Part shown: piece after piece, positions 1,986 to 7,761 of the stretch
Layout of the letters: every line of letters starts with the position of its first letter
Position numbering within the stretch: position 1 is the stretch's first letter
Virus record (IMG/VR): IMGVR_UViG_2869965101_000010
DNA length: 7,761 bases
Strand: one strand, 5' to 3'
DNA from: a virus
Lineage: Duplodnaviria > Heunggongvirae > Uroviricota > Caudoviricetes
Made by a program: the position numbers and the translations under genes
Notes under the pieces: model-generated
Seen by the model: the letters and a program-made list of their open reading frames with translations, nothing else
Told to the model about the DNA's origin: nothing
Databases searched by the model: none

Positions 1986-2324
1986 CTATTTCCCTGAATT
2001 TACGACGAAACTGTTCGAGCGGACTGAAGCATTCATGCTCATAACCTCCGCGGAGGTAGATAACCCGCTGTGTTTCCGGCTCCCAACGAATGACTCTGAC
2101 GGGCACTCCGTAGTGATCTTTGAACCAGCGGTTAACTTGTCGCAAAGGACTGTCTCCTTCTGCCGGTTGAAATCACCCACAGCCCACTCTGCAAAGCTGT
2201 GGGTTACAATTTCCCTGTCACCTGGTACATTCACTGCATAGCAATATTTCACCTTCGCTTTTCCACCCGGTACAGAAAGCGCAATCAGTTGCGAGCGACG
2301 GTAGTGTGTTGTTAAACTGTTCAT
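1986..2324 (-). CDS. hypothetical protein (112 aa), translationally coupled to the upstream CII-like gene
   Basis: ORF track 1986..2324 (-). Its ATG (2322..2324) overlaps the TGA of the upstream gene (2321..2323) as ATGA on the minus strand. GGAG lies about 10 nt upstream. No family recognised. Confidence 0.5.
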
Positions 2325-2890
2325 GCGTTAGTTTCTCCACAACCAGAAGCAATCGACGCCACGACGCCCGGAGCTGCACACTCGCGGGCGTCATTACTTT
2401 CTGAAATGCAAAAAATTTTGTAGACAAGTGCTGCATGCTCCTGCAGCTTCGAAATTGAGAGATACAGCTCGTCGTTAATTGCTGTCTTCTCATGCGGTTC
2501 CACTACACCGTCTTCGATTGCTGAACGAATCTGTTTTGAATAACTGCCGATCTGTTCAATGACTTCCAGCAGACGCTGGTTAATATCGGCGTTGTCCACA
2601 TCCTCGATGTCAGGAAGAGACACAAAGACGCCATTTGCAGACTGCGCCACAGCATCAGCAATGAAGTGAGTGCCACCAGCACGCTGTAAAACCATTGCCC
2701 ATCCCAGCGGGAAAATCTGATCGCCATCTGCACGAAGGCGGTTGAATAAAGCGTTTTCTGTTACATCGAGCCAGTCAGCCGCTTCAGCGTAACCACCCGG
2801 CAACTTTGCGATAGTTTTTCTGACAGCTTTCACGTACCACTCAGGCTGTTTTTCTATTTTCCAGTGATGCTTACCCACGATTAGCCTCAT
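2321..2890 (-). CDS. phage early regulator, CII/YdaT-like (position and HTH-like segment); 189 aa if the first ATG is used
   Basis: ORF track 2321..2890 (-), immediately downstream of the cro-like gene, in the position lambda cII occupies. HTH-like stretch ..[20 protein letters not shown].. No good Shine-Dalgarno before the ATG at 2890; an in-frame GTG four codons later is preceded by GAGG, so the true start is uncertain. Confidence 0.5.
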
Positions 2891-2921
2891 CGTTCTGTGG
2901 TTAAAAATTGAAAGTGTTCTG

Positions 2922-3122
2922 CTAATCTTTCGGATAGATATCCGGTCTTAAGTCAGATTTCGTAATTGCACCTGACGTGCATTGCTCAAGTTTTTTAGCC
3001 AGCACAAAACTGGCTTTTTTATAGCCATTGAAAACCAGCCGTAAGTAGCCTTGTGTTGAGCCAACTTTTCCGGCCAACTCACCCTGCTGTTCTTTGGTTA
3101 AAGAGTCCCAATACGCTTTCAT
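2922..3122 (-). CDS. Cro-like small HTH protein (66 aa), first gene of the leftward early operon
   Basis: In-frame ATG at 3120..3122 (MKAYWDSLTKEQQGELAGKVGSTQGYLRLVFNGYKKASFVLAKKLEQ...) preceded by a strong GGAGG Shine-Dalgarno (reverse complement of 3133..3137) at 10-nt spacing. Divergent from the repressor gene with operators in between. The longer 167-aa ORF in the track is probably an upstream over-extension. Confidence 0.7.
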   Translation of the reverse strand: MKAYWDSLTKEQQGELAGKVGSTQGYLRLVFNGYKKASFVLAKKLEQCTSGAITKSDLRPDIYPKD

Positions 3123-3124
3123 AC

Positions 3125-3149
3125 AATATGTACCTCCAGCGTACATATT
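3125..3149. promoter_or_regulatory. operator site 1: perfect 9-bp inverted repeat AATATGTAC-N7-GTACATATT
   Basis: Read directly from the sequence. Overlaps the cro-like Shine-Dalgarno and start region. Core TGTAC-N7-GTACA is shared with site 2. Confidence 0.65.
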
Positions 3150-3176
3150 ACATGATTGAAATGAACCTTCACGATA

Positions 3177-3197
3177 CTTGTACCTTAGCGGTACAAG
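3177..3197. promoter_or_regulatory. operator site 2: perfect 8-bp inverted repeat CTTGTACC-N5-GGTACAAG
   Basis: Read directly from the sequence; core TGTAC-N7-GTACA. Its left half overlaps a candidate -35 (TTGTAC 3178..3183) that sits 17 bp before a TTTAAT -10 (3201..3206), which would give a near-leaderless repressor transcript starting close to the ATG at 3213 (lambda PRM-like). Confidence 0.6.
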
Positions 3198-3212
3198 GGT
3201 TTTAATTTCGTT

Positions 3213-3887
3213 ATGAAAACAATCCATGACATCCGGCGGTCTAACGCCAGAAAACTGAGAGATGGTGTTGGCGGGAATTCTTCCTTTGCCACTATGATTG
3301 ATCGCGAGCCAACCCAGACCAGCAGGTTTATGGGAGATGGTGCTACTAAAAATATCGGTGACAGCATGGCACGACACATTGAAAAATGTTTCGACCTGCC
3401 TATCGGATGGCTCGATCAAGAACACCAGACAACGAACATCACAAAAAAACCTGATGTTTCAATCACTAACAAACAAATAACGTTAGTCCCTGTCATATCA
3501 TGGGTACAGGCCGGAGCATGGAAAGAAGTTGGCTATTCTGAGGTTGATTTGAGCACAGCAGAAACTTATCCCTGCCCTGTACCCTGTGGCGAAATGACTT
3601 ATATCTTGCGGGTGATTGGTGATTCAATGATTGATGAGTACCGTCCGGGAGACATGATTTTTGTTGATCCTGAAGTCCCTGCTTGCCACGGTGACGACGT
3701 TATTGCGTTGATGCACGATACAGGCGAAACCACCTTCAAGCGATTGATAGAAGATGGAACACAGCGTTATCTCAAAGCATTACACCCAAACTGGCCTGAG
3801 CCCTACATTAAGATTAACGGTAATTGCTCTATAATTGGCACTGTGATTTTCTCGGGAAAACCAAGAAGATACAAAATAAAGGCCTAA
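3213..3887 (+). CDS. CI/C2-family prophage repressor with LexA-like S24 autopeptidase domain (224 aa), apparently intact
   Basis: ORF track 3213..3887 (+). The C-terminal domain aligns by eye with P22 C2 and lambda CI (..VISWVQAGAWKEV.., ..RVIGDSM.., ..ETTFKRLIEDG.., ..KINGNCSIIGTVI..). Predicted Ala100-Gly101 cleavage site, Ser138 and Lys176 at canonical spacing (37 and 38 residues). The N-terminal ~70 aa is HTH-like. Confidence 0.85.
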   Translation: MKTIHDIRRSNARKLRDGVGGNSSFATMIDREPTQTSRFMGDGATKNIGDSMARHIEKCFDLPIGWLDQEHQTTNITKKPDVSITNKQITLVPVISWVQAGAWKEVGYSEVDLSTAETYPCPVPCGEMTYILRVIGDSMIDEYRPGDMIFVDPEVPACHGDDVIALMHDTGETTFKRLIEDGTQRYLKALHPNWPEPYIKINGNCSIIGTVIFSGKPRRYKIKA

Positions 3888-3898
3888 TCAATATTTAT

Positions 3899-3922
3899 GA
3901 ACCTGCTTCGGCAGGTTTTTTT
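3899..3922 (+). terminator. intrinsic (rho-independent) terminator downstream of the repressor gene
   Basis: Stem GAACCTGC / GCAGGTT with TTCG tetraloop, followed by a T-run (3916..3922), beginning 12 nt after the repressor stop codon. Confidence 0.65.
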
Positions 3923-3926
3923 ATAC

Positions 3927-3959
3927 TTGACAATGTACCCCATGGACACACAATGTACC
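3927..3959 (+). promoter_or_regulatory. candidate sigma70 promoter (PL-like) flanked by two operator-like direct repeats
   Basis: Consensus -35 TTGACA (3927..3932), 16-bp spacer, -10 CACAAT (3949..3954). A 10-bp perfect direct repeat ACAATGTACC at 3930..3939 and 3950..3959 contains the same TGTAC half-site as the two operators and overlaps the -35 and -10. Confidence 0.4.
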
Positions 3960-4059
3960 AAAACGAAACAACAAACAGGCAGGATGCCCACGAAGTAGCC
4001 GCCTGGGGCATATGAAGTCCAAGATGATTCGTTAGCAACAAAACGCCCATAGGACGCTT

Positions 4060-4068
4060 CGCTCTTTA
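4060..4068 (+). promoter_or_regulatory. boxA-like element CGCTCTTTA (extended CGCTCTTTAACAA)
   Basis: Exact match to the boxA consensus of lambdoid nut sites and rrn antiterminators as recalled, about 100 nt downstream of the PL-like promoter. No convincing boxB hairpin immediately 3' and no N-like ORF follows. Confidence 0.35.
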
Positions 4069-4376
4069 ACAATTTGAATATTTTCAGCGTCAATGATCTG
4101 TTTAGCTCCCTACAAGTAAATGTAGCGTAGCACCATGATAAATCCTGCTAGTGTTTAGTTAAAAATCGCGCGAGAGCAAGAACGATGTGAGGGCAGGCAA
4201 TACTGATAGTGTTATTGCTATTAGTTTATCAAAAATATTTAGACGACCCAGATGAATATTTTTAATACATACTCCCCCTAATTTAACAGGAGTAAATGTT
4301 GATGAATAACGAGACATCTATACTCAACAATTGTATGATATGAACAATTATATAACATAATGTAGGAAAAATAAAA

Positions 4377-4511
4377 ATGGATTGGCATGACCTTATATCA
4401 AAGGTAATTATCGGACTTGTTACAGGCTCAATCGCAGCTTACTTAACTGCGCGATATGCACTCGGCCGTTATTATAAAGAAAAATGGTGGGACAAAAGAA
4501 TAGATTTGTAG
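4377..4511 (+). CDS. small single-pass membrane peptide (44 aa as found); C-terminus defined by the IS1 junction
   Basis: ATG 4377 with AGGA Shine-Dalgarno 9 nt upstream. Translation MDWHDLISKVIIGLVTGSIAAYLTARYALGRYYKEKWWDKRIDL has one hydrophobic helix and a basic/aromatic tail. The stop TAG (4509..4511) uses G4511, the first base of IS1. Not in the supplied ORF track (under 60 aa). Confidence 0.4.
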   Translation: MDWHDLISKVIIGLVTGSIAAYLTARYALGRYYKEKWWDKRIDL

Positions 4512-4565
4512 GTGATGCTGCCAACTTACTGATTTAGTGTATGATGGTGTTTTTGAGGTGCTCCA

Positions 4566-4841
4566 GTGGCTTCTGTTTCTATCAGCTGTCCCTCCTGTTC
4601 AGCTACTGACGGGGTGGTGCGTAACGGCAAAAGCACTGCCGGACATCAGCGCTATCTCTGCTCTCACTGCCGTAAAACATGGCAACTGCAGTTCACTTAC
4701 ACCGCTTCTCAACCCGGTACGCACCAGAAAATTATTGATATGGCCATGAATGGCGTTGGATGCCGGGCAACTGCACGCATTATGGGCGTTAGCCTCAACA
4801 CGATTTTACGTCACTTAAAAAACTCAGGCCGCAGTCGGTAA
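4566..4841 (+). CDS. insA: IS1 InsA (91 aa)
   Basis: ORF track; [91 protein letters not shown] matches IS1 InsA (zinc-finger/HTH). Confidence 0.9.
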
Positions 4842-4885
4842 CCTCGCGCATACAGCCGGGCAGTGACGTCATCGTCTGCGCGGAA

Positions 4886-5263
4886 ATGGACGAACAGTGG
4901 GGATACGTCGGGGCTAAATCGCGCCAGCGCTGGCTGTTTTACGCGTATGACAGGCTCCGGAAGACGGTTGTTGCGCACGTATTCGGTGAACGCACTATGG
5001 CGACGCTGGGGCGTCTTATGAGCTTGCTGTCACCCTTTGACGTGGTGATATGGATGACGGATGGCTGGCCACTGTATGAATCCCGCCTGAAGGGAAAGCT
5101 GCACGTAATCAGCAAGCGATATACGCAGCGAATTGAGCGGCATAACCTGAATCTGAGGCAGCACCTGGCACGGCTGGGACGGAAGTCGCTGTCGTTCTCA
5201 AAATCGGTGGAGCTGCATGACAAAGTCATCGGGCATTATCTGAACATAAAACACTATCAATAA
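4886..5263 (+). CDS. insB: IS1 InsB (normally expressed as the InsAB' transframe fusion)
   Basis: ORF track 4886..5263, [46 protein letters not shown]...; matches IS1 InsB. Confidence 0.9.
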
Positions 5264-5278
5264 GTTGGAGTCATTACC

Positions 5279-5611
5279 CAGACGGCGTACCACACAGGAA
5301 AAGATCGCAATTGTTCAGCAGAGCTTTGAACCGGGGATGACGGTCTCCCTCGTTGCCCGGCAACATGGTGTAGCAGCCAGTTATTTCTCTGGCGTAAGCA
5401 ATACCAGGAAGGAAGTCTTACTGCTGTGGCCGCCGGAGAACAGGTTGTTCCTGCCTCTGAACTTGCTGCCGCCATGAAGCAGATTAAAGAACTCCAGCGC
5501 CTGCTCGGCAAGAAAACGATGGAAAATGAACTCCTCAAAGAAGCCGTTGAATATGGACGGGCAAAAAAGTGGATAGCGCACGCGCCCTTATTGCCCGGGG
5601 ATGGGGAGTAA
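5279..5611 (+). pseudogene. insC: IS2 insC remnant: first ~8 codons missing and an internal frameshift
   Basis: Track ORFs 5265..5477 (...[34 protein letters not shown] then out of frame) and 5426..5611 ([60 protein letters not shown]) are the two halves of InsC in different frames. Relative to canonical InsC (..[26 protein letters not shown].., from memory), about 4 nt (one CCAG unit) are missing near 5372. Confidence 0.7.
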
Positions 5612-6474
5612 GCTTAGTCAGCCGTTGTCTCCGGGTGTCGCGTGCGCAGTTGCACGTCATTCTCAGACGAACCGATGACTGGATGGATGGCCGCCGCAGT
5701 CGTCACACTGATGATACGGATGTGCTTCTCCGTATACACCATGTTATCGGAGAGCTGCCCACGTATGGTTATCGTCGGGTATGGGCGCTGCTTCGCAGAC
5801 AGGCAGAACTTGATGGTATGCCTGCGATCAATGCCAAACGTGTTTACCGGATCATGCGCCAGAATGCGCTGTTGCTTGAGCGAAAACCTGCTGTACCGCC
5901 ATCGAAACGGGCACATACAGGCAGAGTGGCCGTGAAAGAAAGCAATCAGCGATGGTGCTCTGACGGGTTCGAGTTCTGCTGTGATAACGGAGAGAGACTG
6001 CGTGTCACGTTCGCGCTGGACTGCTGTGATCGTGAGGCACTGCACTGGGCGGTGACTACCGGCGGCTTCAACAGTGAAACAGTACAGGACGTCATGCTGG
6101 GAGCGGTGGAACGCCGCTTCGGCAACGATCTTCCGTCGTCTCCAGTGGAGTGGCTGACGGATAATGGTTCATGCTACCGGGCTAATGAAACACGCCAGTT
6201 CGCCCGGATGTTGGGACTTGAACCGAAGAACACGGCGGTGCGGAGTCCGGAGAGTAACGGAATAGCAGAGAGCTTCGTGAAAACGATAAAGCGTGACTAC
6301 ATCAGTATCATGCCCAAACCAGACGGGTTAACGGCAGCAAAGAACCTTGCAGAGGCGTTCGAGCATTATAACGAATGGCATCCGCATAGTGCGCTGGGTT
6401 ATCGCTCGCCACGGGAATATCTGCGGCAGCGGGCTTGTAATGGGTTAAGTGATAACAGATGTCTGGAAATATAG
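5569..6474 (+). CDS. insD: IS2 transposase InsD (301 aa), intact reading frame
   Basis: ORF track 5569..6474; [34 protein letters not shown]... with DDE-type core (..WCSDGFEF.., ..WLTDNGSCY.., ..[19 protein letters not shown]..). Matches IS2 InsD as recalled. Confidence 0.9.
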
Positions 6475-6550
6475 GGGCAAATCCAATAATAAATCAACAT
6501 ATCATTTCACGCTCCGATTTTCTGTCGGAGGCGAAACTGCGGCTATTCAT

Positions 6551-6856
6551 ATGCACGAAAAAGAGAATCTTGCTGGAGCGTTCTGGCTCGTTTTGCTGAT
6601 CATCGCAGGTTGGGGCGGTCTGGTCCGCTACCTGATAGATGTGAAGCAGAGTAAAGCAACGTGGAGTTGGATAAATGCTCTGGCTCAGATAGTGGTATCA
6701 GGATTCACCGGTGTTATTGGTGGCCTGATCAGCATCGAAAGTGGATTCAGTATTTACATGATTCTCGCGACAGCGGGGATTAGTGGTGCGATGGGTTCGG
6801 TTGCACTGACGTACTTCTGGGAACGACTGACAGGGGTGAAAAATGCAAAATCTTAA
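6551..6856 (+). CDS. phage holin, class I-like (three predicted TM helices), about 101 aa
   Basis: In-frame ATG at 6551 (MHEKENLAGAFWLVLLIIAGWGGLVRYLIDVKQSKATWSWINALAQIVVSGFTGVIGGLISIESGFSIYMILATAGISGAMGSVALTYFWERLTGVKNAKS). Three hydrophobic segments. Its 3' end overlaps the start of the endolysin gene by 14 nt, as in lambda S/R. The track ORF start at 6449 lies inside IS2 and is not native. Shine-Dalgarno is weak. Confidence 0.6.
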   Translation: MHEKENLAGAFWLVLLIIAGWGGLVRYLIDVKQSKATWSWINALAQIVVSGFTGVIGGLISIESGFSIYMILATAGISGAMGSVALTYFWERLTGVKNAKS

Positions 6857-7099
6857 TCCTCAGCGTAAAGCTTTCCTCGATATGGTGGCATGGTCAGAAG
6901 GAACGGATAACGGGCGACAACCGACACGTAACCACGGTTATGATATTATTGTCGGTGGTGAACTCTTCACTGATTACTCCGATCACCCTCGCAAACTTGT
7001 CACGCTAAACCCCAAACTCAAATCAACAGCTGCAGGCCGTTATCAACTTCTTTCACGCTGGTGGGATGCTTACCGCAAGCAGCTTGGGCTGAAAGACTT
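6843..7099 (+). pseudogene. lambda R-type endolysin (lytic transglycosylase), N-terminal ~86 codons; truncated by the IS911-like insertion
   Basis: MQNLNPQRKAFLDMVAWSEGTDNGRQPTRNHGYDIIVGGELFTDYSDHPRKLVTLNPKLKSTAAGRYQLLSRWWDAYRKQLGLKDF is near-identical to lambda R residues 1..~86 as recalled, including the catalytic Glu in WSEGTD. Similarity ends at ~7100 where the IS terminal repeat TGAAGTGG begins; the ORF then reads 11 codons into the IS. Confidence 0.8.

Positions 7100-7761
<662 letters not shown>

Follow-up and report, generated by a model that had tools for sequence, protein, structure and literature searches.

The window analysed here, a stretch of 7,761 nucleotides from the Caudoviricetes virus record IMGVR_UViG_2869965101_000010, carries a cro-like gene and a CI-like repressor gene that are divergently oriented with 90 bp between them. 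Three sites in this gap (O1, O2 and O3, the OR region) and two sites at a PL-like promoter downstream of the repressor gene (OL1 and OL2) most probably make up, as judged from the sequence and its conservation, the operator set of a lambda-type bistable immunity switch of the e14/SfV group, bound by dimers of the CI-like repressor. The operator consensus that we propose as part of this reading, and with the same confidence, is the 17-bp sequence TGTACC-N5-GGTACA, and the YdaS-type Cro encoded by the divergent gene very probably binds these operators as well. The existence of the sites, their non-random occurrence, their co-variation with the recognition helix of the repressor and the identities of the genes are direct observations.

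Probable operator sites and promoters of the switch

As read from the sequence, a perfect inverted repeat, AATATGTAC-N7-GTACATATT, occupies 3125..3149 (centre 3137), and another one, CTTGTACC-N5-GGTACAAG, is found at 3177..3197 (centre 3187). This confirms the original prediction, made from the letters of this stretch, of two perfect palindromes with centres 50 bp apart. Their common core, TGTAC-N7-GTACA, has only two exact matches in the whole window, at 3129-3145 and 3179-3195, and both lie inside the 90-bp gap between the cro-like gene and the gene for the 224-aa CI-like repressor. Dinucleotide-preserving shuffles gave a mean of 0.01 exact matches, and none of 200 shuffles reached two. When up to two mismatches were allowed, five matches were obtained in the window, all of them in the OR intergenic region or at 3934-3970.

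The site that had been called site 1, O1 (3129..3145, TGTACC-TCCAG-CGTACA, within the extended palindrome 3125-3149), is one of the two exact matches and overlies the predicted start of PR together with the Shine-Dalgarno sequence of cro, GGAGG at 3137..3133 on the minus strand, so that the proposed overlap with the ribosome-binding site of the cro-like gene holds. The other exact match, O3 (formerly site 2; 3179..3195, TGTACC-TTAGC-GGTACA, extended palindrome 3177-3197), overlaps the -35 and the spacer of PRM. Between them lies O2 (3162..3178, TGAACC-TTCAC-GATACT), the degenerate third site of the original prediction, which is present as described (TGAAC-N7-ATACT). It abuts O3, overlaps the predicted -35 of PR and has its centre 43 bp upstream of the cI ATG. 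Because O2 shows three mismatches to the ten specified bases of the motif, it is not significant by itself; its position is conserved in relatives, and in several of them it is nearer to the consensus. The centre spacings are 33 bp from O1 to O2 and 17 bp from O2 to O3. An OR2 placed as in lambda, halfway between the palindromes (centre about 3162), was also considered, and by eye nothing motif-like was found there, the conserved middle site being centred on 3170.

The bare half-site TGTACC occurs 13 times in the window on both strands versus 2.55 expected, a number reached in 0 of 200 shuffles. Eight of these are located outside OR and OL, within coding or insertion sequence (IS) DNA, at 331, 950, 1285, 2224, 2269, 3503, 3578 and 5892; none of them has a partner half-site at N5, and codon or compositional bias may explain them. 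The copies at 2224 and 2269 (inside ymfM) and at 3503 and 3578 (inside cI) were rejected as operators because they lack this partner.

PRM (3178..3206, plus strand) consists of the -35 TTGTAC (3178-3183), a 17-nt spacer and the -10 TTTAAT (3201-3206), which is separated by 6 nt from the repressor ATG at 3213. K-12 e14 carries the same PRM sequence, and the K-12 ymfK mRNA was found by differential RNA-seq to be leaderless, being among only five leaderless mRNAs detected in E. coli (PMC4681348). From the same spacing of -35, -10 and ATG, the window copy of PRM is predicted to give a leaderless cI mRNA too, and the -35 of this leaderless promoter is indeed overlapped by site 2, as had been suggested. 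Nearly all enterobacterial relatives have a TnTAAT-like -10 with 6-7 nt between it and the ATG. On the minus strand, the predicted PR has its -10, TAATAT, at 3145..3150, with its last T being the first base of O1, and its -35 at 3167..3172, inside O2, where the window reads GTGAAG versus TTGAAG in K-12 e14 and SfV. Most relatives have TAATAT, CATAAT, TAGAAT or TTTAAT at the PR -10 position (GACAAT and TATCCT in two), and a TTGnnG -35 with a 16-nt spacer is found in 24 of 28 sequences. A simple consensus promoter scan called neither PR nor PRM; the assignment of both is based on conservation across relatives, from which the position of PR and its start point near 3138-3140 are predicted, and that of PRM also on the published RNA-seq.

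Downstream of cI, a terminator scan detected an intrinsic terminator on the plus strand (3899..3925; stem 3899-3918 followed by a T run), which is conserved in relatives and annotated in the SfV and Ayreon records. It is followed by the PL-like promoter (3927..3954, plus strand), with TTGACA at 3927-3932, a 16-nt spacer and CACAAT at 3949-3954, a 10/12 match to the consensus; relatives read CATAAT at the -10, and PL is annotated as a promoter in phage Ayreon. OL1 (3934..3950, TGTACC-CCATG-GACACA) is placed between the -35 and the -10 of PL and has two mismatches, its right half being degraded, and OL2 (3954..3970, TGTACC-AAAAC-GAAACA), also with two mismatches, has the last T of the PL -10 as its first base and covers the predicted start, in the same register as O1 relative to the PR -10. 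The half-site that had been said to recur at a PL-like promoter is thus there, as TGTACC at 3934 and 3954, while the distance from OR is about 750-830 bp and not 700 bp. In relatives this region reads TTGACA-A-[TGTACC-N5-GGTACA]-TAAT-[GTACC-N5-nAACA]. OL1 is a perfect or one-mismatch palindrome in 22 of 22 relatives compared and, in addition, in Providencia, Rosenbergiella and Morganella, and OL2 has in most relatives a perfect left half and nAACA or TTACA as its right half.

Conservation of the sites and their association with the recognition helix

Conservation was followed in 19 loci with 73-99% repressor identity, taken from contigs of one genome per species and belonging to Escherichia, Pseudocitrobacter, Klebsiella, Atlantibacter, Leclercia, Phytobacter, Enterobacter, Pantoea, Trabulsiella, Kluyvera, Limnobaculum, Rahnella, Edwardsiella, Entomohabitans and other genera. 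TGTAC-N7-GTACA, with no or one mismatch, was present at -84/-85 and at -34/-35 from the repressor ATG in all 19, and the block from O1 to O3 aligned across relatives without any indel. The majority-base frequency in 19 distinct blocks was 0.99 for the O3 half-sites and 0.49 for the 5-bp spacer of O3, and it was 0.94 for the half-sites of O1 as well as for those of O2. The left half of O2, TGAACC, was invariant in these enterobacterial blocks, and its right half was GGTACT in 11 loci, nearer to the consensus than the GATACT of the window; in Providencia, Salinicola, Morganella and the Pseudomonas phage CF3a the left half is a perfect TGTACC. The O1 site near -84 was found in every relative, with 0-2 mismatches. 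Among 85 near-identical copies, polymorphisms were concentrated in the spacers and in the DNA between operators. An alignment scan of viral contigs returned 99-100% identical copies only, which are informative for microdiversity.

The original prediction had proposed that the 17-bp motif would be found next to homologous repressors in other genomes. It was found there at fixed offsets in 25 non-redundant relatives, with repressor identity down to 42%. In these 25 loci, which comprise 116 kb, 68 of the 71 matches with at most one mismatch lay in OR or within 130 bp after cI, and two of the remaining three resemble displaced OL sites; by chance, about 3.4 such matches would be expected. OL is displaced further by inserted genes in some relatives (L110 and L112).

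Full-length homologues of the repressor down to about 40% identity were then compared together with their gene contexts; a protein search with the N-terminal domain of the repressor alone had returned fragments only. Where the helix REPTQxSR is kept, motif-like sites are located about 50 bp apart at around -84 and -34. This applies to the homologues of Serratia (66% repressor identity), Providencia (60%), Rosenbergiella (56%), Salinicola (51%), Morganella (43%; sites at about -78 and -28 from the annotated start) and Salinivibrio (42%), and three of these six loci also keep PL with a full palindrome. No such motif was found at L113, a 40% homologue with a different helix. The same pattern of helix and motif was obtained when phage genomes were searched with the N-terminal domain. 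In Pseudomonas phage CF3a (REPTQVSR), where the C-terminal part of the repressor is a different one, both sites are exact and lie at about -85 and -34; in Vibrio phage p42 (RSETQVSR) the site at -34 is exact, and a weaker one of the AGTACC type can be made out by eye upstream of it. Phage mEp043, with the helix PSYVSR, carries TTTACC-N4-GGTAAA repeats at about -73 and -30 from cI, BP-4795 (PSQLTQ) carries TTATC/GATAA-type repeats upstream of cI, and no operator-like repeats were found in Ralstonia RSK1. Homologous repressors with another recognition helix are accompanied by different repeats or by none.

These comparisons suggest one helix/operator pair, TQxSR with TGTACC-N5-GGTACA, that would be maintained in one geometry from Enterobacterales to Halomonadaceae, Vibrionaceae and Pseudomonas phages, also where the repressors have dissimilar C-terminal domains. 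Should the repressors concerned recognise one another's operators, a single immunity specificity would span several bacterial orders, a proposal that we put forward tentatively and regard as rather doubtful. As to the repeats of mEp043 and BP-4795, this family of N-terminal domains might serve to read a code from helix to operator.

The proposed switch and alternative explanations

The CI-like repressor gene (3213..3887, plus strand), the orthologue of e14 ymfK/cohE, codes for 224 aa with a Peptidase_S24 match (Pfam, E 9e-25) and is 99% identical to E. coli copies. The protein has an N-terminal helix-turn-helix domain with the helix REPTQTSRFMG and a C-terminal S24 autocleavage domain, which matches the C-terminal domain of lambda CI (1f39, E 9e-9); the predicted self-cleavage residues A100-G101, S138 and K176 are invariant in 12 repressor homologues. 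The divergent cro-like gene (2922..3122, minus strand; 66 aa, ATG at 3122..3120) is the orthologue of e14 ymfT/croE. Its annotation in E. coli and SfV is ymfT or cro, and it has homologous partners in distant switches; its matches to YdaS_toxin (E 5e-6) and HTH_3 (E 0.006) are both under the Pfam cut-offs. The second gene of the PR operon is the ymfL orthologue (2321..2890, minus strand), annotated ymfL in the E. coli matches, which codes for a CII-like regulator (Pfam Phage_CP76 (CII), E 2.6e-13).

In the switch that we propose, repressor dimers would contact the 17-bp sites through the N-terminal helix-turn-helix, with the recognition helix ...TQTSR.... In the lysogen, repressor bound to O1, where it covers the start of PR and the ribosome-binding site of cro, and to O2, where it covers the PR -35, would silence the cro-ymfL-ymfM operon, and repressor on OL1 and OL2 would silence PL. 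Since O3 overlaps the -35 of the leaderless PRM, its occupancy by excess CI or by Cro would shut this promoter and turn off repressor synthesis. O2 might also provide positive autoregulation of PRM, which is plausible because it lies 43 bp upstream of the PRM start, where lambda CI activates PRM. SOS-activated RecA would trigger self-cleavage of the repressor (Ala100-Gly101; Ser138/Lys176) and thereby flip the switch. Within this scheme we infer which protein occupies which site, the order of filling, the activation of PRM from O2, the start of PR and looping between OL and OR.

Several observations weigh against this interpretation. CI and Cro occur together in nearly all loci, and the comparison of loci can therefore not assign the sites to one or the other. 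O2 has three mismatches in the window. The centre spacings of 33 and 17 bp, with O2 abutting O3, are unlike those of lambda, so that a pairwise cooperativity of the lambda style cannot simply be assumed. With the PR start as predicted, the cro mRNA would begin almost directly with its Shine-Dalgarno sequence, an unusual arrangement. Finally, the switch may not operate in this genome, since PR, OL1 and PL are mutated. With regard to the spacing, it might reflect another mode of cooperation, for example a tetramer that bridges O1 and O2; bridging of operators by a tetramer has reportedly been proposed for the distantly similar Rep of SPC32H.

It could be argued that the palindromes are recognised by the YdaS-type Cro alone or by the CII-like YmfL, and that the CI-like repressor binds elsewhere. 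In characterised lambdoid switches CI and Cro share their sites, which speaks against such a division. Cro homologues with a shared YLR(L/Q)V helix do accompany the motif wherever the divergent gene is present, and the footprints of the YdaS protein and of the repressor fall in one and the same intergenic region of prophage CP-933P (PMC8630535). However, in Serratia (L107) and Morganella (L111) the sites are kept at the same offsets with neither a cro-like nor a CII-like neighbour. Moreover, the motif follows the TQxSR helix of the repressor across different C-terminal domains, as in Pseudomonas phage CF3a, and in the intergenic region no other conserved repeat family fit to serve as repressor operators was evident. 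We consider this explanation unlikely.

For the palindrome at 3177-3197, an RNA hairpin or intrinsic terminator instead of a protein site was suggested by the terminator scan, which flagged CTTGTACCTTAGCGGTACAAG followed by GGTTTTAATT on the plus strand. The stem has only four G-C pairs, and O1 and the stretch between the PL -35 and -10 carry the motif as well. Relatives have GAATGTCTAATG, CAATGTTTAAT and similar sequences in place of the T run, which correspond to the PRM -10. This reading fails on two counts, and we hold it to be very improbable: relatives do not keep the T tract, and the arms, instead of covarying, have an invariant sequence with no compensatory changes. A chance origin of the palindromes, or their being targets of host factors such as LexA or a GTAC-specific restriction-modification system, could be supported by the palindromic nature of the tetranucleotide GTAC and by the window-wide enrichment of TGTACC noted above. 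The absence of two exact matches from all 200 shuffles speaks against chance, and the fixed 11-bp spacing of GTAC, the conserved flanks and the fixed offsets from the repressor gene, from Escherichia to Pseudomonas, speak against both origins. No LexA box (CTGT-N8-ACAG, at most one mismatch) was found in 2880-4000. The shuffles, the locus-wide match counts and the LexA-box scan effectively refute this possibility, to which we attach next to no credence.

Relation to known phages and state of this copy

A 2-kb stretch of the window matches 2699 of 5426 complete E. coli genomes, with best matches of 97% identity in which the genes are annotated ymfK, ymfT and ymfL; in K-12 these three genes are part of the cryptic prophage e14. 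The same stretch is 93-97% identical at the DNA level to phages SfV, SfIV, cdtI, Ayreon, PhiR29/49 and Stx2c phages (93-95% for SfV and SfIV). In the SfV record U82619.2, 26377..26445 is annotated 'putative operator region', which corresponds to window 3128..3196 and spans O1 to O3. Given these matches and this annotation, the locus is the already known e14/SfV immunity region, whose operator region is predicted in the SfV record. A full-text literature search found no report of a ymfK/cohE operator, motif or binding, the SfV and e14 genome papers being outside its scope.

All the elements described above, from the three OR sites and the terminator to PL and its OL sites, recur in e14 (cohE(ymfK)/croE(ymfT)), SfV, SfIV, cdtI, Ayreon and Stx2c. 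The operator half-sites are identical to those of K-12 e14, which has the same operators and PL; this copy differs from e14 and SfV in the spacers of O1 and O3, at 3172, 3947 and 3951 and in its IS insertions. Site 1 is a perfect TGTAC-N7-GTACA in the window, whereas SfV has TGTAC-N7-ATACA. With near-identical repressor, Cro and operators, homoimmunity with the e14/SfV group would be expected.

Compared with lambda, the locus has the same divergent cI/cro arrangement, and both PR and PRM are overlapped by three related 17-bp operators within about 67 bp. Its cI transcript, predicted to be leaderless, would resemble that of lambda, the S24 C-terminal domain of its repressor is a homologue of the one in lambda CI, and downstream of cI there is a terminator, after which PL and additional operators follow; O2 lies at about -43 of PRM and lambda OR2 at -42. 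On the other hand, the operator sequence, TGTACC-N5-GGTACA, is unrelated, the centre spacings are 33 and 17 bp versus 24 and 23 bp, two OL sites are recognisable and not three, OL and OR are about 0.8 kb apart versus 2.4 kb, and the best palindrome covers PRM and not PR. For the Cro protein, with its YdaS-type helix-turn-helix, and for the CII-like protein, of the Phage_CP76 type, no relationship to the lambda proteins is detectable. Among experimentally dissected switches, the closest analogue is PaaR2/YdaS/YdaT of prophage CP-933P in E. coli O157:H7 (PMC8630535, PMC9986795), in which overlapping footprints of the repressor and the YdaS-type Cro cover PRM and PR, and PL has related OL sites (PMC8630535). 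Both loci share a short gap between a repressor gene, leaderless in CP-933P and predicted to be so in the window, and a YdaS-type cro followed by a CII-equivalent, but the CP-933P operators are four GTTTAGTAA-type 18-bp palindromes, and the CII-equivalent of the window is Phage_CP76, not YdaT. The nearest PDB matches are marginal (E 0.07-0.2): 8co2 and 8c7k, titled 'antirepressor protein Cro', for Cro, and, among those for the N-terminal domain of the repressor, 7nkv, 'phage repressor protein CI'.

The window is an IS-riddled prophage remnant whose two early operons are both truncated by IS elements. The PR operon is interrupted by an IS3-family element (516-1672), and IS1 (4566-5263), IS2 (5265-6474) and a second IS3-family element (7108-7761) follow downstream of PL. 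A partial tyrosine recombinase open reading frame (ORF; 1-504) stands at the start of the window. A holin gene (6449-6856) is found after IS2, and an ORF at 6843-7133, lysozyme-like by eye and without a Pfam match, overlaps the start of the last IS. The repressor gene, O1 and O3 are intact in this copy. The PR -35 has been changed from TTGAAG to GTGAAG by a C at 3172, which is present in only one of the 85 near-identical copies. With respect to K-12 e14, SfV and most relatives, T-to-C changes at 3947 and 3951 have converted the right half of OL1 from GATACA to GACACA and the PL -10 from CATAAT to CACAAT, respectively. Together with the intact repressor gene, the changes in the PR -35, OL1 and the PL -10 are consistent with a decay of the lytic promoters. 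On the PR side, the window also holds an intact orthologue of YmfM (1986-2324, minus strand; 112 aa, 96% identical to e14 YmfM), which in K-12 is annotated as a cell division inhibitor and is reported to be SOS-inducible. Its gene overlaps the ymfL stop codon by 4 nt and, in another frame, a DUF4222 ORF (1966-2145), and it would fall under the control of PR.

Just 3' of PL, a conserved element of about 56 nt (3976-4031) is shared with K-12 e14 (between ymfK and ymfJ), SfV and 10 other relatives. It consists of CAGGCAGGAyGCCCACGAAGTAGCCGCC, a 5-bp stem, the loop GGCRTATGAAKR, the returning stem and ATGATTCG. RNAalifold found compensatory changes at three of the five stem pairs, and in the window copy one stem pair (4003/4022) is a C-A mismatch. 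An Rfam scan of 2880-4560 gave nothing credible, this element included. A possible role for the element is that of an antitermination or leader RNA similar to nut or put. At 4060-4072, about 100 nt 3' of where PL is predicted to start, the window contains CGCTCTTTAACAA, which we take to be a near-perfect boxA of the rrn/P22 type and which is also present in an E. coli relative (L003). No N-like ORF was found between this sequence and the IS1 insertion. According to the SfIV genome paper, SfV and SfIV lack N.

The system is not of a new kind, the locus being a known one of the textbook type. To it, our analysis adds an explicit operator consensus, a map of five sites and the breadth of the specificity across Gammaproteobacteria. 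The e14/SfV immunity group is found in about half of the complete E. coli genomes that were searched, as well as in serotype-converting, cytolethal distending toxin (CDT) and Stx2c phages, and the site map helps to predict homoimmunity between resident remnants and incoming phages. It also helps to interpret the expression of e14, including that of the SOS-inducible division inhibitor gene ymfM downstream of PR. The intact repressor of an IS-riddled remnant such as this one could still block phages of the SfV/SfIV or Stx2c type.

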